This document shows, piece by piece, positions 36,787 through 50,401 of a stretch of 64,000 nucleotides of DNA. The notes under the pieces were generated by a model. It was not told where the DNA came from. It saw only the letters and a list, made by a program, of their open reading frames with translations, and searched no databases. This DNA comes from Promethearchaeia archaeon (GTDB lineage: Archaea; Asgardarchaeota; Lokiarchaeia; Sigyniarchaeales; SOKP01): contig JAHQWH010000015.1 of assembly GCA_029856105.1 (NCBI GenBank), positions 64,001-128,000 of the forward strand, in the 5' to 3' direction. Each line of letters begins with the position of its first letter. Position 1 is the stretch's first letter. A program made the position numbers and the translations under genes.

Positions 36787-39555
36787 TTAAAGTTGAATTT
36801 CACAAGACTCCGAATCACAGAACTTACTTCCTATTGCTCTGTCTTTTGTTTTATCCAAATCTAAAGGTTTAAGTTTTGAAATCATTTCCTCGAATTTTTC
36901 TTTTGTGATTTCTTCGTAAGGAGCTTGTTTATAGCCGTGTTCTTTAATCGGTAGAAAACTTACGCTTTTTAGCTTATCCTCAAAACACTCCAACACGTGT
37001 TTAATCTGATTTGCCTCGTCTTGTTTAAAAGTAATCGTTATTGACACTTGGTTGTCGGACCAATATTTTTGATAGTCTGCGGCATTTTCCGCTTGTTCCC
37101 ATATAGAAACATCGTCCTTGGAACGTTCGAATAATTGTTCGTGGACAGGGAATTCGACTACTATAGTATTAGGAGAATAAGAATCTTCCTCTATGTAATA
37201 ACCCGCATTTTTAATGGGTTCTATCAAATCAGAATTAGTTGAAATGCGAATTCTTCTAATATAGTATTCTGAATGAGGATAATGAATTCCTGGAGGTACT
37301 CCCGGAAGTAAGCTAACGGTTCCGCTCGGTTTAACCGTTGTGATTTTTATCGATTTTGGGATACACAACCAATCGGAATAATCCTCGTCCAATTCCCGTA
37401 TATATTTATAGCCTTTATCACACCAGTCTAACATAGTCCTTCTCCCATGTTTCACAAAAGCTTCAATTATTCCCGTTTGTGAAATTCCCATTCGCCTATT
37501 CTTAAGCATAACTGCGTTAGTTTCTTGCCAATGCGTATTTACGAGCGTTACAGATTTGGCGTACAAATAAGCGGACTTTAGAGTGTCTTGATACTCTTTG
37601 TATGATTCATGCCTTGAAGGGAAGGTCTCCACAAGGCAGCAAAGCTCGAATGACTCCAACGTCTGTTCTCCGCAATTCGCTGTAAAAATCATTTCTAATT
37701 TTGGTCTATTTGTTTTAGTTTTCTTCTCATTTAATACGATTCCATAATTATGGTAGTCGTCTACAGTACCATTATAAACAACATCATATCCTAATCGTTT
37801 AACTGAGGCTATTTTATGATTATAAATTAAGCCATTTTCAATTAGCAATTCAGCTATTTTTTTAGCATATTGCTTATTCTGTGTTATTTTTTTAGAGCTT
37901 ATTTTAGGGATTCCAGAAATCATAAGACTATCTCCAATTCTTAAATCTCGCGCTTCAACTTGTAACATATCCCTTAGAAAAAATTTATGATTTCCTGTGC
38001 ATTTTATTGTGCTATCATCATCTAATTTTACTTCATATATTTTCTCATTATAGCCTGTAATTCTTGGATTTCTCATCATTCTTATTGCTGTTAATCCTTT
38101 ATCATCTTTACAGTACACAGGAACATCGTTTCCTTCTTCTGCCAATAATTTTATTGCTACAGCATTCCTACCATCAGCGACAGCAATCAATGTATTACCT
38201 GTAATGCAAGGGTTTACGCCAGCAGCTTTCTTATCTTTATGATCTGGCGGGTTTCCCATTCGAGAATATGCTTTTGCGTTTTCTACCCAAAGAATTCCAG
38301 GTTCTCCATTCACAGCAATCTGATCTGCTATGAAAGAATAGTCTAATCCTTTTACTGCGAATATGCTGTTATTGCTTGCCCATCTATGCGAATATAGTTT
38401 TTCTTTGTCTTGTTTGCACTTAATGAACTCTAAATCGGTGGCTTCCCCTAAGGCTATCTCAGCGCTGCGCCTAACATTGCCTGCGACGACGCATTTTCCA
38501 ATGAGATTCATAATATCCAAAATATCAAGTGATCTTATTGGTTGACCAATTCGAGCTTCTAAGATTTTTTGAATATTCATCAACATATCCTTTAAAGGGT
38601 CTGGACCGCTGGCAATTCCTCCAAAGCCTCTAATTGGCTGACCTGCAGACCTGATTAAGCTAAAATCAAACTTTGGAATTCGCTTACCTAAAAGATACGC
38701 TTCTATAACAAGTTTAAGTGCTTCCACCCAACCTTCTCTGCTATCGGGTATTTGAAAAGTAAAATGATCTTCTATAGGTTTTTTAATTGTAATTTTACCC
38801 GCTCCTTTCGTATCAAAACCGACCCCCACACCTAACATTAGCGCATCCATCACGAATTGAAACGCTTTCGAGTATTTTAAGTTAATATCGTCGGTAGAGG
38901 CAAAACCACAGTTATTGAGCGACATAGAACCGTGCCGCGCGATAAATTCGGTCCCCATCATCCATAATCCTCGACCAGGTGGCAGAAATTTAAAATTCCA
39001 GATTTTATCGTACATTATTTGAGCAGATTTCTGAGCTTTAGCATCGGTCCAAGGTAAACTTAACTTAATACAGTGCTCCTTTTGGATTGAATAACAACCT
39101 TCGACAACTCTTCTGATCGTTTCCCAGAACTCTTCTTTTCTGTTCTCTCCTTCTACAACTCTTGCGTAGGTTCTTTTGTACGTAATATACCCTAAAGGCC
39201 CCCAATCAGGTTGTTTCCCTATAAATTTAGCAAGAAAATTGTCGTCTAATGTGAAAGATATATTTTCCAAATTAATAGCTCGCGCGAACAGATTTCGATA
39301 TTTATTTAAACCTCGTTGGGTTAGCTCGACACACACTAATTCTCTAATGTAATTAGTAGTGATCTCGTCAACTCCTAAACCAATAATTATTCGAATAACA
39401 TCTTCCGTAACTTTTTCCGCAATGTTTATATCAAGACCAGTTTCTTTGTTTAATACTTTTGCTATGTTAGAAACTTCGAATTTTTTCTTTTCGCCTTTCG
39501 AGTTTATTACATATTTTGGATACAAATCTACTAATGAAAACGAATTATCAGTCAT
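36787..39555 (-). CDS. nrdJ: Class II (adenosylcobalamin-dependent) ribonucleotide reductase with N-terminal ATP cone and an intein
   Basis: TYKRTYAR, PPGRGLW, NNC, GVGVGFD, VVAGNVRRSAE, NP[intein]CGE, TTVKPSGT and C-terminal CDSESC. Confidence 0.93.
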   Translation of the reverse strand: MTDNSFSLVDLYPKYVINSKGEKKKFEVSNIAKVLNKETGLDINIAEKVTEDVIRIIIGLGVDEITTNYIRELVCVELTQRGLNKYRNLFARAINLENISFTLDDNFLAKFIGKQPDWGPLGYITYKRTYARVVEGENRKEEFWETIRRVVEGCYSIQKEHCIKLSLPWTDAKAQKSAQIMYDKIWNFKFLPPGRGLWMMGTEFIARHGSMSLNNCGFASTDDINLKYSKAFQFVMDALMLGVGVGFDTKGAGKITIKKPIEDHFTFQIPDSREGWVEALKLVIEAYLLGKRIPKFDFSLIRSAGQPIRGFGGIASGPDPLKDMLMNIQKILEARIGQPIRSLDILDIMNLIGKCVVAGNVRRSAEIALGEATDLEFIKCKQDKEKLYSHRWASNNSIFAVKGLDYSFIADQIAVNGEPGILWVENAKAYSRMGNPPDHKDKKAAGVNPCITGNTLIAVADGRNAVAIKLLAEEGNDVPVYCKDDKGLTAIRMMRNPRITGYNEKIYEVKLDDDSTIKCTGNHKFFLRDMLQVEARDLRIGDSLMISGIPKISSKKITQNKQYAKKIAELLIENGLIYNHKIASVKRLGYDVVYNGTVDDYHNYGIVLNEKKTKTNRPKLEMIFTANCGEQTLESFELCCLVETFPSRHESYKEYQDTLKSAYLYAKSVTLVNTHWQETNAVMLKNRRMGISQTGIIEAFVKHGRRTMLDWCDKGYKYIRELDEDYSDWLCIPKSIKITTVKPSGTVSLLPGVPPGIHYPHSEYYIRRIRISTNSDLIEPIKNAGYYIEEDSYSPNTIVVEFPVHEQLFERSKDDVSIWEQAENAADYQKYWSDNQVSITITFKQDEANQIKHVLECFEDKLKSVSFLPIKEHGYKQAPYEEITKEKFEEMISKLKPLDLDKTKDRAIGSKFCDSESCEIQL
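37675..38208 (-). mobile_element. Mini-intein (178 aa, no homing endonuclease) in the nrdJ active-site NPC motif
   Basis: Begins CITGNT, block B CTGNHKF, block F VYNGTVDDYHNY, ends FTAN before CGE. Removing it restores NPCGEQ. Confidence 0.92.
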
Positions 39556-40002: not shown

Positions 40003-40956
40003 TTGTTAGACGAAATTGAACCGCCTGATATGAATGACTCTGATGGTGAAGTTGCTAAAGAAAAAATAAAACTCCAATTCCATTGGTATTTGAGTATATT
40101 TTTTGTTATATACTATTGTTCATATGTAATACCGGGAATTGTCTTTATGATGTATGTGATATTAGTTTTTATCCCTCTCTTTTTAAGGGTAGATAACTTG
40201 TTTGTTGTCTTTACGAACCTTGATTCTTTAATAGCTTTTTTAGCCTTACCGTTAGTTCTTATTGTGAGTTATTTAATCCACTTATTTTTAATAGGTTTGA
40301 TCTCGCGAATTTTCTGGAGATACACTGAAAAAATCTCACCAAGTAAAGACGGCGTCATTCCAAGAAACATCCCTTCTAAAACGGCTAATTTATACCATAT
40401 AAGATCCTTTATGATTAAATACGGAAAGAATGCTTTCATGAAAGGGATATTCCCGTGGCTTTCCAATTGGTTCTTCAACTTCGTAGGAACAAGCGTGATT
40501 GCAAAGGGCTCTACACTCGAGGAATCAGTAGTTACGGATAGAAACGTAAATGTCGGAAAAAACTGCTATATTGGAGTTAATTCGGCGCTCTCTAGCCATT
40601 TTGTCGAGGGAATCTTCGGAAATATAGTGTATTTCGAAATAAAGCTAGGAGAAAACGTTACTTTAGGAGGTTTTAATAACATTGCGCCAGGATGCGAGCT
40701 AAGAGATAATTCGTATTTATTGCCAATGGCAGCAGCAACTAAGCACAATTTACTGAAAGGAGATAACTACTACTTTGGTATGCCTTTACGCAGGATATTC
40801 AGGAAGAAAGTTATGAATTACTTAAAGATTAGCGAAGATAATTTAATTCAAGCTGAAGAATTAAGAGTTAAGCAGGAAAACGCAAAGTTAGAAAGGATAC
40901 AAAAAGAAGTAGAAAAAAATGAAAAAAAAAAAGTAAAAAATGAAGGCGTGAGATAA
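40003..40956 (+). CDS. Membrane protein with 2 TM plus left-handed beta-helix (acyltransferase-like) domain, type A, copy 1
   Basis: Hexapeptide repeats (VGKNCYIG, LGENVTLG), SSHFVEG, YFGMP. Confidence 0.8.
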   Translation: MLDEIEPPDMNDSDGEVAKEKIKLQFHWYLSIFFVIYYCSYVIPGIVFMMYVILVFIPLFLRVDNLFVVFTNLDSLIAFLALPLVLIVSYLIHLFLIGLISRIFWRYTEKISPSKDGVIPRNIPSKTANLYHIRSFMIKYGKNAFMKGIFPWLSNWFFNFVGTSVIAKGSTLEESVVTDRNVNVGKNCYIGVNSALSSHFVEGIFGNIVYFEIKLGENVTLGGFNNIAPGCELRDNSYLLPMAAATKHNLLKGDNYYFGMPLRRIFRKKVMNYLKISEDNLIQAEELRVKQENAKLERIQKEVEKNEKKKVKNEGVR

Positions 40957-40957
40957 A

Positions 40958-41869
40958 ATGAATGAAGATATAGAAAATGAGAATAAAAGCTCTGAAAACA
41001 TAGATGATGACTCTGACTTTAACATTGATTTTACTACGAGTTCTGCTATTAACAGAGTTAGTCTTAAGTTTTTAATAGTATATATACCAATCTTTTGGTT
41101 TTCAGGTATTATTGTAGCAACTTTTTGGTACGGCTACACTGTGGGTACAGAACCATGGATTATTAAATTGTTATTTTTACCCATTTTATTGTTAGCATTT
41201 ATGTTTCTTTTCATTATTAGTTGCTTCTTTTTTAGTAAGCTTCTGTTAATTTTAATAAATTTAATACACCTTCCCAAAGAAGGAATTTTCCGAACTGAGA
41301 AGGGCGACACGGATTTTGAATTTTGGAGATTAAGAAACGAAATAAAAAAAATTGTTTTGTGGTTGATAAGAAACTGGCCTCTACCTTGGATAGACGTATT
41401 AGCTTTTCGCTGGTTTGGGGTAAATATGGATTTTTCGAGCCACTTGAACGATGCGTGGTGCGACGCTGAATTTATTAAGTTTGGAAACAACGTAACAATC
41501 GGCCAAGGGGCCGTTTTAATGAGCTCAATGGTTGTAGGTAATTATCTAATCATTAAAAGAATAACATTCGAAGATTTCTCCCTTGTTGGAGGACAAAGCA
41601 CGATTGCTCCTGGAACTCACTTTGGAAAAGACACTGTTTTAGGTGCGGTATCAGTTACCACTCTTAATCAAAAATTAGAAGACGGGTGGATATATTCAGG
41701 TATTCCTGCTAGGAAATTAAAGCCTAATCAATACGCTGAAATGAGAAGAGATATTATACAAAAAGTAGATGTTGACGAAGAAGAAAAAACTGAAGTAGAG
41801 CACGAAGTTAATATTGACGAAGATAAAAAACATTTAATTAAAGGAAACAAGGAGGGCGTTAAAAAGTGA
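40958..41869 (+). CDS. Membrane protein with 2 TM plus LbH domain, type B, copy 1
   Basis: PKEG, FRWFGV, FGNNVTIGQGA, IAPGT, WIYSGIPA. Confidence 0.8.
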   Translation: MNEDIENENKSSENIDDDSDFNIDFTTSSAINRVSLKFLIVYIPIFWFSGIIVATFWYGYTVGTEPWIIKLLFLPILLLAFMFLFIISCFFFSKLLLILINLIHLPKEGIFRTEKGDTDFEFWRLRNEIKKIVLWLIRNWPLPWIDVLAFRWFGVNMDFSSHLNDAWCDAEFIKFGNNVTIGQGAVLMSSMVVGNYLIIKRITFEDFSLVGGQSTIAPGTHFGKDTVLGAVSVTTLNQKLEDGWIYSGIPARKLKPNQYAEMRRDIIQKVDVDEEEKTEVEHEVNIDEDKKHLIKGNKEGVKK

Positions 41870-42792
41870 GCGTTCCGAATTCAATGCGAGTTGGTCCTTT
41901 TTGTGCAACCGTATTGGCTAAGAAAAAATATTTGCTTTTGTACATTTTTTTAATATGGATAAGTCTACTTCCTGCGATATTGGAAATTTGGTGGTATTGG
42001 CAGATCTTGTGGTACGATTTAAGACCACTTCATTTTTATGTGTTTTTACCTCTTTATTTTATTGTGATGTATATCACAACTGTGTTTGCTGCGATTTTCT
42101 TTGCTAAAATTTTATTAATTATAGTTAATGTCTTTCACAAACCAAGAGAAGGCGTTTTTCTAAGGGATTCCGCAGACAAAGATTATAGATATTGGAGCCT
42201 TAGAAATACGATTAAAAAGTGGCCAACCTGGCTTGCGCATAAATTTCCCTTTCCATTTTTAGACAATATTTGTTTCAAGGTGTTTGGAGTAAAAACAAAA
42301 TTTTCTAACTCTCTTTTTGAAGGTTGGGTGGATACTGAATATATCGAGTTCGGTAAAAATGTAGTTGTTGGTCAGGGTGCCATAATTCAATCTTCGGCTA
42401 TTATAGGAAACTTTTTAATTATTAAAAAAACTATCATTGAAGAAAACGTTAGAATAGGCGCACATGTAATAATTATGCCAGGCACCCATATAGGAAAAAA
42501 CTGCATTTTAAACACTTGGTCGTCTACAATGGTAGGTCAAGAACTAGAAGAAGGTTGGGTGTACAATGGGGGTCCTGCGAAAAAATTCAAGAAAAATAGA
42601 TTTTTTGAAGACATTCCAATCGAAAAACTTACTAAAACCGTTGGAGACCTTGACGGACTATTAAAGAAATACGATGAGCAATATGTTAAGCGGCAAGTCA
42701 AAAAAAAGGTACCTCTCAAAGAAAGAAGAATCCATATAAGAAAAGAAAAATCCGAAGAAAAACCGGAAGAAAAAACTAAAAAAAAGGATTAA
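41866..42792 (+). CDS. Membrane protein with 2 TM plus LbH domain, type C, copy 1
   Basis: PREG, FKVFGVK, FGKNVVVGQGA, IMPGTHIG, YNGGPA. GTGA overlap with the type B stop. Confidence 0.8.
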   Translation: MSVPNSMRVGPFCATVLAKKKYLLLYIFLIWISLLPAILEIWWYWQILWYDLRPLHFYVFLPLYFIVMYITTVFAAIFFAKILLIIVNVFHKPREGVFLRDSADKDYRYWSLRNTIKKWPTWLAHKFPFPFLDNICFKVFGVKTKFSNSLFEGWVDTEYIEFGKNVVVGQGAIIQSSAIIGNFLIIKKTIIEENVRIGAHVIIMPGTHIGKNCILNTWSSTMVGQELEEGWVYNGGPAKKFKKNRFFEDIPIEKLTKTVGDLDGLLKKYDEQYVKRQVKKKVPLKERRIHIRKEKSEEKPEEKTKKKD

Positions 42793-42794
42793 TC

Positions 42795-43580
42795 ATGAAA
42801 ATTGGTTATGTTCAAACCTCTCCAACCTTTAACGAAAAAACTCAAAACTTTGAACAAGTAAAGAACTTATTAACCAATATCAAAGCAGAATTAATTGTAT
42901 TACCCGAACTTTTCGCAACCGGTTATACATTCATCTCTAAAAAAGAAGCTGAATCTTTATCGGAAGATATTAACGGGCAAACCGCTCAATTTCTAAAGAA
43001 ATTATCAAAAGATACAGGTGGAGTCGTAATTGGAGGGTTTGTTGAAAAAGATGGCGATGAAATATTCAATTCTGCGATGATAGTTTCAAGAAATGAAGTT
43101 ATCGGTACATATAGGAAAATCCATCTATACTATAAAGAAAGCTTATGGTTCTCTCCCGGAAACAAGCCTTTACGAATTTACGAAGTAAACAACATGAAAA
43201 TCGGAATAATAATTTGTTTCGATTGGATATTTCCGGAGACAATTCGTACGCTCACGCTTCTTGGAGCTGATATCATTGCGCATCCCGCTAATTTAGTACT
43301 TCCATATTGCCAAAAAGCTATGATCACTCATTGTTTGGTAAATCGCGTTTTTGCTGTAACTTCTAACAGAATTGGCAACGAAGTAAGGGGAAAAGACGAT
43401 TTTAAGTTTACGGGGGGAAGTCAAATCACGTCTTATAACGGGGACATACTCTCGTCCGCACCAATGGATAAAGTCTACATTAAATTTATAGAAATTGATG
43501 TAATCCACGCGAGAAATAAAAAGCTTAATAGTTATAACGATTTACTAAATGATAGAAGACCAGAATTCTATCTTCAATAA
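42795..43580 (+). CDS. Carbon-nitrogen hydrolase (nitrilase superfamily)
   Basis: Triad regions LPELF, YRKIHL and ICFDWIFPE; NRIG. Confidence 0.92.
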   Translation: MKIGYVQTSPTFNEKTQNFEQVKNLLTNIKAELIVLPELFATGYTFISKKEAESLSEDINGQTAQFLKKLSKDTGGVVIGGFVEKDGDEIFNSAMIVSRNEVIGTYRKIHLYYKESLWFSPGNKPLRIYEVNNMKIGIIICFDWIFPETIRTLTLLGADIIAHPANLVLPYCQKAMITHCLVNRVFAVTSNRIGNEVRGKDDFKFTGGSQITSYNGDILSSAPMDKVYIKFIEIDVIHARNKKLNSYNDLLNDRRPEFYLQ

Positions 43581-43621
43581 TCATAAAAATCTTGAAAATA
43601 ATCCAGATCACATAAAAACAA

Positions 43622-44020
43622 TTATCTTAATTTAGAAAAAACTACTTGGTTCTCCAAGAAACTTATTATCTTTTTGCAAGTTTTTCGAACTATATTCTTA
43701 TTTGGATAAAAAATTTCTGGTCTTGGACATTCGCTATCAAAAACACACGAGTTCTTATCTGAATCGTAAATTAAAGGGTAAAATCGGCATCCTTGAGGTC
43801 TTATCTCGTAAATTTTACATAATTTTGTTTCCCCATCGAAAAAGAAGCAATGTCCGTTAATATTTTTTAATTGATAAAAGTTATCTTCAGTTTTTTGTAC
43901 AAAATCTGTTTTTCTCAAGGTTGTTTTATGACTACTAACGATAACTTCGATGTCTTGGTCAGAGAGAATCATCTCTGTCTCGATACAGCAATTTCCACAA
44001 TCTTCACATCTATTCTTCAT
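43622..44020 (-). CDS. YkgJ/CxxCxxCC Fe-S/zinc cluster protein
   Basis: CEDCGNCC, CFFF, CKIYEIRPQGCRFYP. Confidence 0.9.
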   Translation of the reverse strand: MKNRCEDCGNCCIETEMILSDQDIEVIVSSHKTTLRKTDFVQKTEDNFYQLKNINGHCFFFDGETKLCKIYEIRPQGCRFYPLIYDSDKNSCVFDSECPRPEIFYPNKNIVRKTCKKIISFLENQVVFSKLR

Positions 44021-44203
44021 ATTATCTTTTCTATTAGTATATGTGATTTTAAGGTTAGTTCTTAATCGTTTTGGTAGTTTTGTTGTTAATATAACTTTAA
44101 AAAGTAAAAAACATATCTATTTTACTGATGTCTAATTTATGATTGAGTAAATAATTGAAAGAACTCACTAAGTAACTTATCAATACTTTTCGTATGATAG
44201 AAA

Positions 44204-46042
44204 ATGCTTGAAGAAATAAAACCAGAATCATTGGATGAATCAGAGGATTCTCAAGAAGCCGTTATTAAAGAAACTGTGAAAATACAATTTAAAATCTACA
44301 TATTAGTATTTGCTTTTATTTACTATTTCTCTTGGATAATCCCTGGTATAATCTTAATGGCATATTTTTTTATGATTTTTCGAGTGTACTTTTTAGATAC
44401 CAGCAATTTTGTTATGCTTTTCACAGAACTGTATCCCCTCCTCTCATTGATTCTAATGCCGCTTTTAATAATAGTTTGTTATCTTATACACCTATTATTA
44501 ATTGGATTAGCAACAAAATTGTTTTGGAGTATTACTGAAAAAATTTCCCCTTCAAAAAATGGTATAATCCCAAGAAACATACAAAGTAAGACGGCAAATT
44601 ATTATCATATGAGAAGTTTCATGATCAAATATGGAAAAAATGTATTTACCAAAGGAATGTTCCCGTGGCTTTCCAATTGGTTCTTTGACTTTGTAGGTTC
44701 AAGCAAAATTGGAAAAGGGTCCACAATTGAAGAATCTGTAGGATCAGATAAATTTATTGATGTTGGGAAAAACTGTTATATCGGTGTAAACGCTACGTTA
44801 GCGTCTCATTTAGTGCAAGGCATATTCGGGAACATATCCTATTTCGAAATAAAGCTTAAAGACAACGTTACCCTCGCTGCGATGAATCAAATTGGTCCAG
44901 GAACCGAAATTGGCAAGGATTCTATTTTATTACCCTTAGCCTCATGTACTAAACACAGCGTATTAAAAGGGGGGAAATATTATGTAGGAATCCCCCTACG
45001 TAAAATTTTCAAAAAAAAAATTTTGGATTATTTAAGTTTGACACCTGAAGACTTAGAGCGAAACGATACTCTTAATGAATTTATTACAAAAAATAAAAAA
45101 GACAAAACTAAAGAAAAAACTAAAGAAAAATCTGAAGAAGATTTTACTGTTAAGCAGGAAAAGGAAGAACCAGTTGATGTAGATTGCCTTACAAAAGAAG
45201 ATCTAGCTTTGGACTTTACAACTAGTAGCGCTATCAGTAGAATAAATGTTAAATTTTTGGCAGTATATGTTCCCATTTTCTGGTTAAGTGGATTAATGGT
45301 AGCAATATATTGGTTTGAATACACAAGATATTTTGGACTAGAAACGATTTTGTTTTTACCAGTCGCAATCTTTTCTATGTTGTACATATTCATCTTAGGA
45401 GTGTTATTTTTTAGTAAAATGCTTTTAATTCTTGTAAATTTAATACATAAACCGCGAGAAGGTATTTTTCTCGCTGAAATTGGAGATAGAGATTACGAGT
45501 TTTGGATGTTGAGAACAGAACTAAAAAAGATCAGCCTCTGGCTAATTAGAAATTCTCCATTTCCTTGGGTAGATGTAATAGCGTTTAAATGGTTTGGAAT
45601 AAATATGGATTTTTCGAGCCATTTAAACGATGCGTGGTGCGATGCCGAATTTGTAAACTTTGGTCGATATAATTTAATTGGACAAGGAGCAACAATTATG
45701 TCCTCGATGGTAGTCGGCAAATACTTAATAATTAAAAAGGTTATAATTGACGATTATGTTATGATTGGCGGTCACACAACTATCGCCCCTGGCACGATAA
45801 TGGGACATGATTCGGTTATGGGCGCTATCAGTTCAACTACATATAATCAAATTTTAGAACCAAATTGGATATATTTTGGAATTCCCGGAATTAAACTAAA
45901 AGAAAATAAATATGCCGAAGAAAGAAGAGATATTATAATAAAGCGCGATGTTGACGAGCAAGTGAAAGTTGAGATGACTTACGAAGTTAATATTGATGAG
46001 GATAAAAAGAAATTAATAAAAACGGAAAATAATAAGGGGTAG
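44204..46042 (+). CDS. Fused type A + type B membrane/LbH protein, copy 2
   Basis: N-half matches 40003..40956 (IPRNI.SKTAN.YH.RSFMIKYGKN, FPWLSNWFF). C-half matches 40958..41869 (DFTTSSAI, MDFSSHLNDAWCDAEF). Confidence 0.85.
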   Translation: MLEEIKPESLDESEDSQEAVIKETVKIQFKIYILVFAFIYYFSWIIPGIILMAYFFMIFRVYFLDTSNFVMLFTELYPLLSLILMPLLIIVCYLIHLLLIGLATKLFWSITEKISPSKNGIIPRNIQSKTANYYHMRSFMIKYGKNVFTKGMFPWLSNWFFDFVGSSKIGKGSTIEESVGSDKFIDVGKNCYIGVNATLASHLVQGIFGNISYFEIKLKDNVTLAAMNQIGPGTEIGKDSILLPLASCTKHSVLKGGKYYVGIPLRKIFKKKILDYLSLTPEDLERNDTLNEFITKNKKDKTKEKTKEKSEEDFTVKQEKEEPVDVDCLTKEDLALDFTTSSAISRINVKFLAVYVPIFWLSGLMVAIYWFEYTRYFGLETILFLPVAIFSMLYIFILGVLFFSKMLLILVNLIHKPREGIFLAEIGDRDYEFWMLRTELKKISLWLIRNSPFPWVDVIAFKWFGINMDFSSHLNDAWCDAEFVNFGRYNLIGQGATIMSSMVVGKYLIIKKVIIDDYVMIGGHTTIAPGTIMGHDSVMGAISSTTYNQILEPNWIYFGIPGIKLKENKYAEERRDIIIKRDVDEQVKVEMTYEVNIDEDKKKLIKTENNKG

Positions 46043-46044
46043 AA

Positions 46045-47004
46045 ATGTCAATTCCTAATACTATGCGCATAGGTCCATTTATACCGACAGTTTTAGTAAA
46101 GAAAAAATATTTACTTTTCTATCTAATTATCGTTTGGTTCAGTTTTATTCCTGTTTTTTTAGAATTTTGGGTTTATTGGCAATTTTTGTGGAATTATAGT
46201 AGACCAATTCACTTTTATACATTCTTACCTCTTGTAATTCTACCAATGTATATTACCCTTGTATTCAGTGCAATTTTTATTGCCAAAATCTTATTTATAG
46301 CCGTTAATGTCATTCAGAAGCCACAAGTTGGCGTATTTTTAAGACATCCAAGCGATAAGGATTATCGGTATTGGTGTATTAGGAATATAATAAAAAGATG
46401 GCCATTTTGGTTAAGTCATCGATTTCCTTTTCCTTTTTTAGACAACATCTGTTTTAAAGCGTTTGGAGTAAAGACAAAATTTTCAAATTCTTTATTTGAA
46501 GGCTGGGTGGATACTGAATTTATTTCGTTCGGACAAAACGTTGTTGTTGGTCAAGGAGCAATCGTACAATCTAGTGTGATTATCGGTAATCTCCTCATAA
46601 TTAAGAGAACTGTTATTGAAGACGATGTTAGAATTGGTTCTCACGCAATAATCATGCCTGGTACTTATATAGGAAAAAGAAGCGTCTTAGCTGCTAATTC
46701 AATAACAACGGTGGATCAAAAACTCGAGGATGATTATATCTACGTAGGAATTCCAGCAAAAAAATTTAAAAGAAATTATTTCTTTGAAGATGGTTTACAA
46801 GATAAAATAGGACAAGTTGAAGATGTAGAAGCTTTAAGGGCAAAATATGAAAAAATTTATACTAAACGCTACGATGAAAAACCAAAATATAAAGAACGAA
46901 AGAAAATAAAAAGAAAGACGAAAGCGCAAGAACAATATTGGTACGGGGTTGAACTAGAAGAGGGAGAAGAAGACGATATGTATGATGATCCATTTAACAT
47001 TTAA
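46045..47004 (+). CDS. Type C membrane/LbH protein, copy 2
   Basis: Shares FPFPFLDNICFK.FGVKTKFSNSLFEGWVDTE with 41866..42792. Confidence 0.85.
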   Translation: MSIPNTMRIGPFIPTVLVKKKYLLFYLIIVWFSFIPVFLEFWVYWQFLWNYSRPIHFYTFLPLVILPMYITLVFSAIFIAKILFIAVNVIQKPQVGVFLRHPSDKDYRYWCIRNIIKRWPFWLSHRFPFPFLDNICFKAFGVKTKFSNSLFEGWVDTEFISFGQNVVVGQGAIVQSSVIIGNLLIIKRTVIEDDVRIGSHAIIMPGTYIGKRSVLAANSITTVDQKLEDDYIYVGIPAKKFKRNYFFEDGLQDKIGQVEDVEALRAKYEKIYTKRYDEKPKYKERKKIKRKTKAQEQYWYGVELEEGEEDDMYDDPFNI

Positions 47005-47162
47005 TTATTAAATTGCCTATTGAATTATCTACTAGTTTGAAAAACATTACGCTTTTAAACATAAACAGCATAATTTATACTAAATTATTATTTTATGTAA
47101 ATCCTAAGAATAATAATTATAAAAGAGAGACAGAATTAGGAAAATTAGATGGAGTTAAGATT

Positions 47163-48284
47163 ATGCCTATTTTAGAGCAACTTAAGGAAGCAACTCAACT
47201 TACAAATCCTTGGATTAATAGCTGGAAAAATGAAGGAAAAAAAGTATTAGGATATTTTTGTTCTTATATTCCCGAAGAGATTATCTACGCTGCAGATATT
47301 TTACCGATCAGGGTTAGAGCAAGAACGTGCACGGATACACCAATGGGAGATGCTTATCTAAGTCCCACCGCATGTAGTTATACAAGATGTTGTCTTGAGC
47401 AAATCAATAGAAAGGAATTTGGATACTTTGATGGAATTGTTTCGTGTAATTGCTGCGACCAGATTAGGAGACTCTACGATAATATAAGATATAAGGCTCC
47501 GTTTTCTTATCATTATATAATGGGAGTTCCCGGTTATGTCAGTGAAATTACATTAGATTGGTTTAAATATGAACTCTCTAAATTTAAAGTAAGTATTGAG
47601 AAAAATTTCAATACTAGTATTACTAACGAAAAGTTAAGTGATACGATTAGATTATTTAACATTTCTCGTAAATTGCTTAAAGAGTTATATGAGCTCAGAA
47701 AACATGAGTCTCCACCTATTACAGGTAGTGATGTATTAAATATCATTTCAGCAGGACTCTCTATTCCGAAAAATGAGTTTAATGCTTTACTGACGCAGCA
47801 ACTTGAGGAGATTAAGAATAAAGAGGGTATTTCTGATTATAAATCGAGAATAATGATAATCGGAAGTATGCTTGACGAACCAGAATATTTACAAATTATA
47901 GAGGATCTCGGCGGATTAGTAGTCACTGATTCGGTATGTTTAGGGACTCGATATTTTTGGGATATGGTTGATGAAACTACGAGTCCTCTTGATGCTCTTG
48001 GAGAGCGTTATTTATCGAAAATCTCATGTCCTCGTATGACTGATGGTCATATGAAAAGAGCGCAATTTATGATGGATATGATTAAAGAGTTTAATGTTGA
48101 TGGAGTAATTTTTCAAAGAATGAAGTTTTGTGCGATATGGTGGGCTGAGATTTTCATGCTTAGGGACAAATTAAAAGAAGAGGGTATTCCATTTCTTGAT
48201 TTAGAAAGAGATTACATATTAAGCGGCGCTGGAGCTATGAAAACTCGTGTTCAAACCTTTATAGAAATTTTAGAAGCGAGGTGA
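47163..48284 (+). CDS. 2-hydroxyacyl-CoA dehydratase subunit (HgdB/FldC family)
   Basis: GYFCSYIPEE, CCDQIRR, SCPRM, VDGVI...KFC, TRVQTFIE. Start placed at ATG 47163 after a GGAG RBS. Confidence 0.88.
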   Translation: MPILEQLKEATQLTNPWINSWKNEGKKVLGYFCSYIPEEIIYAADILPIRVRARTCTDTPMGDAYLSPTACSYTRCCLEQINRKEFGYFDGIVSCNCCDQIRRLYDNIRYKAPFSYHYIMGVPGYVSEITLDWFKYELSKFKVSIEKNFNTSITNEKLSDTIRLFNISRKLLKELYELRKHESPPITGSDVLNIISAGLSIPKNEFNALLTQQLEEIKNKEGISDYKSRIMIIGSMLDEPEYLQIIEDLGGLVVTDSVCLGTRYFWDMVDETTSPLDALGERYLSKISCPRMTDGHMKRAQFMMDMIKEFNVDGVIFQRMKFCAIWWAEIFMLRDKLKEEGIPFLDLERDYILSGAGAMKTRVQTFIEILEAR

Positions 48285-49609
48285 AAAATTTGGATATAGA
48301 ATTATTTAATAAATATAAAAAACTTGGAAGAGGTAATTGGGGGAAAGATCTTACTATGTGGAAAATGATGTATTTGGGATTTCTAAATCGATATAGAGAT
48401 GAAGAATTTACCCCAGTTTTGGATTTATTACTTAATATCTTCCTTGACCTCCCTAAGGCAAGGAAAGAAGGAAAACTTGTTATAATGCATCCATTTAATT
48501 ATGGTCCTGAATTATTTCACGCAATGAACTTAGCACCTCTTATGCAGGAATTATTTAGTGTTGGATTAGCCCCGTTACATCTTAATGAACCTTATATAGA
48601 TTTTACCAATAAAATTGGATATGGAGACAATCCAACAATCTGTAATGCTCAAAGACCATTGATTGGTTCTTTTATGCAAGGTGTTTCACCAATTCCAGAT
48701 TTACTATTTTTTCTTTCAACGCCTTGTAATTCTCTTGCTATGACTTATCAAGTTTTTGAACATTTAGCTAAAATCCCTGCACATAACATAGATGTTCCCT
48801 ATTGGGCTTATGAACAACAAGATAACGAATTTTATGATGAGAATACTATTGCATATATGGTAAATCAAGTAAAGGATTTAATAATATGGTTAGAAAAAGA
48901 AAAAAAGCAGAAGTTAGATACTGAAAAGCTCCAAGAGACAATGAAAAATGTGAATCAATCAAGGGAATATATATTAGAGTTTAACGAACTTTTAAAAACG
49001 GTTCCTTGCCCAGTACCTAGCCTAGCAGGTTTTGGGAACTTTATTTCCATGGTGACTCGTGGCGGTACTGATGATGCTGTTAAAGCTACCAAATGGCTAC
49101 GTGATTCTGCATTAGAAAATGTAAAAGATGGGATAGCCGGTGTACCTGATGAGAAGATTAGAATTGCTTGGCCTTATACTCATGTCTTCTTTGATGCTGA
49201 CCTTCTCACTTGGTTAGAAGAAACATTCAATGCAGTGGTGATTATGGATATTCTTGGATACTACCAAGTCCTACCTCACGATATATCTACAACAGAAAAA
49301 TGTTATGAGAGTTTAGCTAAGGGAACTTTAGATTTCTCAATGGTGGGAACCTGTCGTGGCCCAATTGAGTATTATATCGAATTTTTATTAAACTATGTAA
49401 AAGAATATAAAATAGATTGTGTGATTATGCCAATGCAATTTGCGTGTAAACACGCATATGCGATGGCTCGAGTTGCTTCTGAAGCTGTGCGAGAACAAAC
49501 AGGAATTCCGGTTTTAATTTTTGGTTGTGATCCTTATGATTCACGAGAAGTAACTTCAGATGCTATAAGAGAGAGGATTTCAGAGTTTCTCACTCAAGTA
49601 GTTTTATAA
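48281..49609 (+). CDS. 2-hydroxyacyl-CoA dehydratase subunit (HgdA/FldB family)
   Basis: PELFHAMNL, TICN, STPCN, IDVP, EKIRIAW, IDCVI...ACK. Confidence 0.85.
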   Translation: MKNLDIELFNKYKKLGRGNWGKDLTMWKMMYLGFLNRYRDEEFTPVLDLLLNIFLDLPKARKEGKLVIMHPFNYGPELFHAMNLAPLMQELFSVGLAPLHLNEPYIDFTNKIGYGDNPTICNAQRPLIGSFMQGVSPIPDLLFFLSTPCNSLAMTYQVFEHLAKIPAHNIDVPYWAYEQQDNEFYDENTIAYMVNQVKDLIIWLEKEKKQKLDTEKLQETMKNVNQSREYILEFNELLKTVPCPVPSLAGFGNFISMVTRGGTDDAVKATKWLRDSALENVKDGIAGVPDEKIRIAWPYTHVFFDADLLTWLEETFNAVVIMDILGYYQVLPHDISTTEKCYESLAKGTLDFSMVGTCRGPIEYYIEFLLNYVKEYKIDCVIMPMQFACKHAYAMARVASEAVREQTGIPVLIFGCDPYDSREVTSDAIRERISEFLTQVVL

Positions 49610-49627
49610 AGGAGGTTTATTATAGAA

Positions 49628-50401
49628 TTGTTAGTAGCTGGATGTGATGTTGGTTCATTAACAGGAAAAGTTGTAATATTACAGGATGGTGAAATTTTAT
49701 CTTATAGTATTGTTCCTACAACACCTAAACCTGAAAAGACTGCTCAAAATGCGATGGATGCGGCACTTCAAAAAAATAACTTATCTTTGAATGATATCGA
49801 ATTCATTGTAGGGACGGGATATGGTAGGATTAAAATTCCCTTTGCCAATTCTCAAATATCAGAATTGTCATGTCATGGTAAAGGTGCCCACTCGGTTCTC
49901 CCATCAGTTAGAACGATAATTGATGTGGGAGGTCAGGATTGTAAGGTAATTAAAGTGGATAAGAACGGAAAGATTCTGGATTTTGCTATGAATGATAAGT
50001 GTGCCGCAGGAACTGGAAGATTTTTGGAAGTAATGGCTAGAACTCTGGAGCTCAAGCTTGAAGAGCTCGGTCCTATATCTTTAGAATCAAAGAATCAGGC
50101 TAAAATAACTGCTCAATGTAGTGTCTTTGCTGAAACAGAGGTAGTTAGTCTTATGGCTGATGGTATAGAAGTAGCAGATATAGTAGCAGGGATCCACGAT
50201 GCTGTAGCCTCTAGAATTATGTCTCTTGTGTATAGAGTTGGCCTTGAAGAAGATTTGACAATAACTGGAGGAGTAGCAAAGAATATAGGAGTTGTAACCT
50301 ATTTAGAGAAAAGGTTGGGTGTCACATCAAAAAAATTATCGGTTGATCCTCAAATAATAGGAGCTTTAGGAGCTGCTTTAACAGCAAAAGAGCAAAAATA
50401 A
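49628..50401 (+). CDS. hgdC: ATP-dependent dehydratase activator (HgdC/archerase)
   Basis: GCDVGS, TGYGR, IDVGGQDCK, MNDKCAAGTGRFLE, CSVFAETE, TGGVA. Confidence 0.93.
   Translation: MLVAGCDVGSLTGKVVILQDGEILSYSIVPTTPKPEKTAQNAMDAALQKNNLSLNDIEFIVGTGYGRIKIPFANSQISELSCHGKGAHSVLPSVRTIIDVGGQDCKVIKVDKNGKILDFAMNDKCAAGTGRFLEVMARTLELKLEELGPISLESKNQAKITAQCSVFAETEVVSLMADGIEVADIVAGIHDAVASRIMSLVYRVGLEEDLTITGGVAKNIGVVTYLEKRLGVTSKKLSVDPQIIGALGAALTAKEQK

Follow-up and report, generated by a model that had tools for sequence, protein, structure and literature searches.

The window analysed here is a stretch of 64,000 nucleotides (nt) from contig JAHQWH010000015.1 of a Promethearchaeia archaeon (positions 64,001 to 128,000). 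At its positions 40003 to 47004 it carries five forward-strand genes that encode six related membrane modules of three types, designated A, B and C. The first set consists of three separate genes, namely subunit A (40003..40956; 317 amino acids (aa), TTG start), subunit B (40958..41869; 303 aa) and subunit C (41866..42792; 308 aa, GTG start), each with two transmembrane (TM) segments followed by a linker and a left-handed beta-helix (LbH). The second set is encoded by two genes, an AB fusion (44204..46042; 612 aa), in which an A-type and a B-type module are joined via a low-complexity linker, and subunit C' (46045..47004; 319 aa). The A/B junction of the first set reads TAA-A-ATG, and the B/C junction is a GTGA overlap of start and stop codons. 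An initial annotation of this DNA had described these junctions and the six TM + linker + LbH modules in five open reading frames, and both descriptions are confirmed.

The three module types are present in two copies each, with similarities far beyond chance. Thus, blastp identity reaches 53% between A and the N-terminal module of AB, 60% between B and the C-terminal module of AB, and 62.5% between C and C' (E 1e-122 to 1e-140). Across types it is 36-40% for B against C and 20-25% for A against B or C. Every module has two long hydrophobic segments within its first ~110 residues, and the Pfam Hexapep matches sit in the C-terminal half. PF00132 scores at or above its cut-off in A, C, AB and C' and below it in B (19.2 bits). 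Membership in the hexapeptide LbH proteins (PF00132/PF14602) agrees with the strand ladder of the AlphaFold2 (AF2) models. Two further motifs noticed in the window, a P-x-x-G stretch and a Y-x-G-x-P ending, turn out to be conserved across 98-137 homologues of each type (137 for A). The former is a P-x-(E/D)-G motif after the second TM segment (P113..G117 in A, P106/E108/G109 in B, P93/E95/G96 in C), and the latter comprises Y257/G259/P261 in A, Y246/G248/P250 in B and Y233/G235/P237 in C.

The first line of evidence that the three types belong together is their arrangement in a sample of 79 loci from Asgard species genomes, where A, B and C co-occur in a fixed order. All 94 C genes with an upstream module gene directly follow B or AB (45 A>B>C, 44 AB>C, 4 B>C in which A was not seen, and 1 ABB>C), and five more C genes lie at contig ends. 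Median gaps between module genes are only -4 to +7 nt. The fusions observed are AB, CA and CAB, which align collinearly (alignment A3) and are all compatible with a single cyclic order, A>B>C>A. The suggestion of an obligate assembly, which had been based on preserved order and the AB fusion, is reinforced by the 94 C genes and by the CA and CAB fusions. The three-module C-A-B fusions of Asgard archaea (P0121 and P0123, 797-805 aa) present all three types in a single chain. The AF2 model of P0121 was built on the fusion-only alignment A3, the register of which was checked; a mixed MAFFT alignment of single and fused proteins (A2) was discarded because the singles stacked on module 1. The model has a predicted local distance difference test score (pLDDT) of 85.1 and a predicted TM-score (pTM) of 0.86, and every module consists of two long TM helices, a strand, two helices and the LbH. 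A 1:1:1 assembly of A, B and C is, in our opinion, strongly supported as a prediction from gene order, fusions and models.

The second line of evidence is the similarity to the terminal domain of the Pls/PosA synthetases, which form cationic homo-poly(amino acids) through iterative isopeptide bonds (PMC9205021) and include epsilon-poly-L-lysine synthetase and delta-poly-L-ornithine synthetase. That domain (TM1-2/C1, TM3-4/C2, TM5-6/C3) shares with the Asgard proteins three modules of TM hairpin, beta-strand, two helices and an LbH of ~5 turns, ~700-800 residues in all, and the published PosA terminal-domain model has the same element order per module as P0121 (PMC10522769). Three tandem modules with six TM helices in total are provided by A+B+C, by AB+C' and, within one chain, by the CAB fusions. 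The ESM Atlas model of P0121 matches Pls/PosA clusters with a TM-score of 0.71-0.73 over 677-689 residues, and the AF2 model retrieves the same clusters at 0.48-0.50. These clusters are named 'Pls/PosA family non-ribosomal peptide synthetase' or 'Amino acid adenylation' and carry PP-binding and Hexapep domains. Outside Asgard archaea, Pls/PosA-type clusters are the only multi-module structural matches of P0121. The PDB matches of its AF2 model are soluble LbH acetyltransferases that cover one module each, and no solved Pls/PosA membrane polymerisation domain came up among the PDB structures searched. At the profile level, hhalign aligns the Asgard fusion profile A3 with P0298, an AMP-binding / PP-binding / three-module protein of the A-T-(TM-LbH)x3 type, at a probability of 98.3% (E 1.4e-14, 526 collinear columns). 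The similarity thus extends across all three modules at the level of both fold and profile, and it is the whole architecture of six TM helices and three beta-helices, and not only the soluble LbH part, that fits the Pls/PosA-type models. A tblastn search of plasmids with the triple fusion, seeking Pls-type sequence, returned matches of the gamma-class carbonic anhydrase (gamma-CA) type only.

It should be stressed that the window set does not qualify as a member of the TIGR02353 family by profile score. TIGR02353, which describes the terminal domain of such non-ribosomal peptide synthetases (NRPSs), is the top NCBIfam match of B (1.6e-9), C (3.8e-11), C' (1.2e-10) and the triple fusion P0121, and the NCBIfam profile search gave no TIGR02353 match for A. 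The scores are 36.7 bits for B, 42.1 for C, 40.4 for C', 35.9 for AB and 67.2 for P0121, against a curated cut-off of 423.1 that no window protein reaches, nor does P0121. Similarly weak matches arise in 13 of 14 unrelated control genomes; therefore, a TIGR02353 match alone proves nothing. The comparison of single modules with this family and with C1-C3 of Pls, which the initial annotation had put forward, thus holds as regards the top matches of B, C and C' and fails as regards family cut-off and module-by-module orthology (see below).

The gap between the Asgard fusion and the TIGR02353-type domain is, as judged by profile scores, bridged by two bacterial single-chain three-module proteins of ~680 aa, P0214 and P0230. 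Both match P0121 (phmmer E 2.5e-20 and 3e-17) and score 181-184 bits against TIGR02353 in three stretches that include the TM regions. Like the Asgard C-A-B fusions, bacterial proteins of this stand-alone kind have three modules and no adenylation/thiolation (A/T) domains. They differ in being always single-chain, in being far closer to TIGR02353 and in their gene contexts. The family comprises about 17 clusters, P0283-P0296 being further members. P0230 (L104:10001-12043) and P0214 (L105:3511-5562) are accompanied either by dTDP-sugar genes together with a GT1 glycosyltransferase or by a FemAB-like gene plus a pair of half-size EamA genes; no A/T genes were found in the neighbourhoods of the stand-alone genes. 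By analogy, these contexts hint at membrane-linked glycoconjugate acceptors. A TIGR02353 search of 301 genomes of the phylum to which the host of P0230 belongs gave no match at E <= 1e-40.

Together, the fold match, the hhalign result and the bridging proteins bear out the proposed resemblance to Pls without NRPS domains. Unlike complete Pls/PosA synthetases, the five proteins have no N-terminal adenylation and thiolation domains (Pfam finds neither AMP-binding nor PP-binding domains in them), no adenylation domain is encoded at the locus, and the 92%-complete genome of the window contains no PF00550 carrier domain. Moreover, the Asgard modules are encoded by two or three separate genes, single-chain forms being rare. 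We conclude that Asgard archaea do possess a conserved system, present in several copies, that represents the Pls-type membrane domain in split form and without a carrier.

The third line of evidence concerns the active site. The A-family profile aligns H199 of A (H202 in AB) with His115 of the E. coli galactoside acetyltransferase LacA, the substitution of which (H115A) removes ~90% of activity (PMC12775004). The loop that follows H199 aligns with the extended loop of LacA. H199 is conserved in 100% of 137 A-type sequences, and H202 of AB is invariant in alignment A5. The corresponding column was read in a stacked alignment of modules from Asgard proteins (30 A, 60 B and C), seven bacterial proteins and two NRPS-type proteins. 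It holds a His in 30/30 Asgard A modules and 0/60 B and C modules, so that A is the only type with a general-base His at the LacA position. B has a conserved MSSM where A has SSH, and C has QSSA at the column while retaining another conserved His, H200, one coil later. The His is confined to the middle module in the Asgard CAB fusions and in the bacterial stand-alone proteins (7/7), and to the third module in the NRPS-type proteins (2/2; both below the TIGR02353 cut-off). Thus, as far as the alignment can tell, one module in three bears the His in every group examined, Pls/PosA-type proteins included, and the position of that module differs between the Asgard fusions and the two NRPS-type proteins.

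Among enzymes with solved structures, the LacA/Maa type (PDB 1KQA/1KRR) offers the closest comparison. The top Foldseek matches of the modelled fusion are maltose/galactoside O-acetyltransferases, AntD and CysE, with single-module TMt values of 0.5-0.6. A shares with LacA/Maa enzymes the hexapeptide LbH, the catalytic His and the extended loop, and the Y-x-G-x-P regions align. The known enzymes, however, are soluble cytosolic homotrimers with three active sites and with neither a TM hairpin nor a helical linker, whereas the Asgard assembly would combine three subunit types, only one of which bears the His.

The relationship of A, B and C to C1, C2 and C3 is not one of orthology. Hidden Markov models (HMMs) of the types give no one-to-one match of A, B and C to bacterial or NRPS-type modules. 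In a maximum-likelihood tree of modules, which is unrooted and has long branches, the Asgard modules form one clade (100/98) and the bacterial stand-alone modules another (100/100). Type HMMs and tree together thus argue against orthology with C1/C2/C3, and the separate clades imply that the three-way specialisation either arose or was homogenised independently in each lineage. Two specific correspondences were considered and rejected as unsupported by both the type HMMs and the tree: a collinear one suggested by hhalign (C=C1, A=C2, B=C3) and a cyclic permutation B-C-A suggested by the His positions. Independent triplication in Asgard, bacterial stand-alone and NRPS-type proteins, each with one His-bearing module, would amount to parallel evolution from homo- to hetero-trimers.

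The interpretation that we favour, with a probability of roughly 0.6, is that A+B+C, and likewise AB+C', form one 1:1:1 membrane pseudo-trimeric LbH acyltransferase with one active site and a coenzyme A (CoA) thioester as donor. Three hairpins would contribute six TM helices to a bundle in the membrane, and the three beta-helices would pack on its cytoplasmic face with pseudo-threefold symmetry, an arrangement also seen in models of the polymerisation domain of Pls/PosA. The cytoplasmic location of the LbH is predicted from the distribution of Lys and Arg, in which the N-terminal tail and the stretch after the second TM segment are rich and the loop between the TM segments is not. A single canonical active site would be built around the invariant His of A (H199; H202 in AB), while B and C, having lost the catalytic His, may act as structural or substrate-binding partners. 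The acceptor would probably be an amine or a hydroxyl at the membrane-proximal end of the helices, carried for example by a lipid, by a glycan attached to a lipid or by a small molecule destined for export, and exchangeable A (or AB) paralogues probably set specificity.

Since carrier proteins are absent from this genome and rare in the family, the acyl or aminoacyl group most likely comes from a CoA thioester, as would be expected by default of an LbH enzyme. PF00550 occurs in 7 of 61 genomes of the window's family, and a carrier-bound donor is on these counts very unlikely; the same figures lend support to the earlier guess of a donor that does not depend on a carrier. All 18 AMP-binding genes of the window's genome are on other contigs. 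An 881-aa open reading frame with a PP-binding domain in a related genome was considered as an Asgard Pls and rejected, being an ordinary A-T-TE protein. CoA-related genes adjoin 3 of the 4 module loci of the window's genome.

Several observations weigh against this interpretation and limit our confidence in it. The heterotrimer, its topology, the CoA donor, the acceptor and the product are what we infer from the comparisons above, and the evidence for complex, stoichiometry and activity is indirect. The location of the His at an interface and the pseudo-threefold packing are modelled features that derive from pTM values and fold matches. When the TM and linker part is aligned on its own, hhalign similarity is weak (E 0.008, probability 5%), and homology of the membrane part therefore rests on architecture and fold and not on sequence. 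The AF2 model of the AB fusion alone repeats the same layout in each module at a pLDDT of 65.9 and a pTM of only 0.60; this moderate value fits an incomplete assembly and is not decisive. No CoA-related neighbour is conserved over the 79 loci, the 2-hydroxyacyl-CoA dehydratase genes (Hgd) being adjacent in 2-4 of them. Polymerisation, and not simple acyl transfer, is what the nearest characterised relatives catalyse. Finally, subunit numbers are unbalanced in some loci, with two or three A genes, or orphan AB fusions, per single C, which suggests that A or AB subunits are exchangeable on a shared partner.

Such unbalanced loci take two forms. The loci L029-L036 (e.g., L029:6254-10912) have tandem A-type paralogues, two or three of them, ahead of a single pair of B and C genes; these may serve as alternative A subunits of one B/C core. 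Orphan AB fusions with no C of their own occur at L057:5749-7560, L087:3838-7536 and L047:5765-7561, where they lie between the A-B-C-nitrilase set and the set formed by the CxxCxxCC gene and AB-C' (both neighbours are described below).

That the system is a true Pls-like polymerase is a possibility we regard as doubtful, albeit one to be taken seriously. In such a case, monomers activated by a separate adenylating enzyme acting in trans, and presented by no carrier, would be joined by iterative amide bonds into a homo-poly(amino acid) or polyamide released outside. The only relatives that have been characterised do join diamino acids into polymers, using an acceptor that diffuses freely (PMC9205021, PMC10522769). 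Possible activating enzymes can also be named, as an ANL/GH3-like family of ~545 aa lies inside the module super-locus in 24/79 loci and an AMP-binding enzyme is adjacent in 12/79; in addition, the CN_hydrolase of the same operon might act on an amide product, trimming or recycling it. Against this, an aminoacyl thioester would have no carrier domain to present it, and the copy of the ~545-aa family in this genome is outside the window, the family being encoded on the opposite strand with no significant Pfam or PDB match. The bacterial stand-alone relatives occur in glycoconjugate and not in amino-acid contexts, and no polymer is known from Asgard archaea.

It is much less probable that the shared operon merely brings together three separate enzymes, with A, B and C each forming a homotrimeric, membrane-anchored acetyltransferase that has a substrate of its own. 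Classical LbH acyltransferases are indeed homotrimeric, as are the maltose and galactoside O-acetyltransferases that represent the closest solved single-module structures, and the unbalanced gene numbers of some loci would be readily accommodated. This explanation, however, has to contend with the lack of a catalytic-type His in B and C, with the strict A>B>C order across 79 loci, with AB, CA and CAB fusions in one cyclic order only, and with a triple fusion that models as a single compact unit (pTM 0.86) and matches single-chain Pls-type domains. The preference for a heteromer over homotrimers expressed in the initial annotation is upheld by these fusions, by the single-chain CAB model and by the restriction of the His to A.

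Equally improbable is a non-enzymatic structural, transport or gamma-CA-like membrane module, comparable to the LbH subunits on plant and protist complex I: weak sequence and fold matches to gamma-CA and complex-I CA-like subunits, and two subunits of three with no catalytic His, speak in its favour, but the invariant His in the catalytic column of acyltransferases, the LacA-like loop after it and the catalytic nature of the closest homologues, the Pls-type domains, do not. Gamma-CAs are defined by three metal-binding His residues at the subunit interface. The conserved His residues here are H132 and H199 in A, H104 in B, and H91, H125 and H200 in C, of which the LbH bodies contain one in A, none in B and one in C, that is, at most one each and no three-His site of the gamma-CA or complex-I CA-like kind.

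The broader setting of the system can be sketched only as a tentative speculation. Loki-type Asgard archaea might possess a carrier-independent modular Pls machine, in which exchangeable A or AB specificity subunits operate on a B/C core, possibly fed by GH3/ANL enzymes, and which builds or decorates an amide- or ester-linked envelope lipid or polymer. A free-standing membrane LbH trimer would then be ancestral and would have been fused later, in bacteria, to A-T domains to give Pls/PosA. The membrane polymerisation domain is the least understood part of the Pls/PosA synthetases, and a natural split, carrier-free version suggests that the domain can work with no NRPS front end. Its small, separately expressible subunits suit structural and mechanistic work, for which the one subunit that bears the His offers an obvious starting point. 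The system also points to the making of a membrane-associated product by the archaea most closely related to eukaryotes.

The distribution of the system is narrow and, within its range, dense. The triple fusion matches 564 of 1.84 billion representative proteins at E <= 0.001. Subunit C has 707 homologues, and every taxon name among the 120 matches listed is Asgard, as are all taxon names attached to relatives across the searches. The A subunit was found in 54/54 genomes of the window's family, most of which gave several matches each, in 5/5 genomes of a sister family, in 10/16 genomes of one further family (mostly as weak matches) and in 1 of ~175 sampled genomes from the remaining families of the phylum. 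Its presence in all 54 family genomes speaks for a function in core physiology and against a secondary metabolite of sporadic occurrence. In databases these proteins are named only 'DapH/DapD/GlmU-related' or 'hypothetical'. Full-text literature searches found no paper on TIGR02353, none that joins Asgard archaea with membrane hexapeptide acyltransferases, and no published description of an Asgard split Pls-like system; the PosA survey took in only proteins of 1100-1800 aa (PMC10522769).

HMM typing of the window's genome finds four A-like, four B-like and four C-like modules. Besides A, B, C and AB, C' on contig C19, there is a CA fusion with B beside an acyl-CoA dehydrogenase (C45:6349-8749, minus strand), a B-like gene followed by a C-like gene and a metallophosphoesterase (C136:2547-4166, minus strand), and an unlinked A-like gene flanked by genes for an MFS transporter and an ADP-forming acyl-CoA synthetase (C161:110650-111453, plus strand).

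Three further features adjoin the module genes of the window. A CN_hydrolase of the nitrilase superfamily (42795..43580, plus strand; PF00795 5.5e-36) starts 2 nt after C; its NF040852 score, 274 bits, is below the cut-off of 500. A CN_hydrolase follows C in 21-22/79 loci; in some lineages it shares the operon of the split A-B-C set. A small CxxCxxCC protein (43622..44020, minus strand; PF03692 5.1e-15) is encoded divergently from AB-C', and its gene is the only robust non-module neighbour, being present in several arrangements in 59-61/79 loci. The operon of the 2-hydroxyacyl-CoA dehydratase type (47013-50401, plus strand) comprises two HGD-D subunits and a BcrAD/BadFG activator and begins 8 nt 3' of C'. 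It was considered as a conserved supplier of the donor and rejected on account of its adjacency in only 2-4/79 loci.

Other neighbours are found in related loci. In 28/79 of them C' is immediately followed by a convergent AlaX-like (tRNA_SAD) gene (e.g., L058:10987-11691, minus strand), and in 12/79 loci the place of this gene is taken by an AMP-binding enzyme of ~608 aa. The unannotated ~545-aa family, encoded on the opposite strand inside the super-locus (24/79 loci; e.g., L072:144-1781, minus strand), is represented in the window's genome by C227:65518-67125. Its consensus contains the ANL/GH3-like motifs HTSGTTN, YVASEIG and IDIGD, and its ESM Atlas look-alikes carry GH3/AMP-binding domains (0.94-0.96); neither a Pfam search nor a profile search against PDB sequences gave a significant match. 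This family could be a carrier-independent acid-activating partner of the modules. A minor observation concerns the ribonucleotide reductase encoded in the window at 36787-39555 (minus strand), which on a comparison of lengths is 922 aa long as against ~745 aa in related loci.

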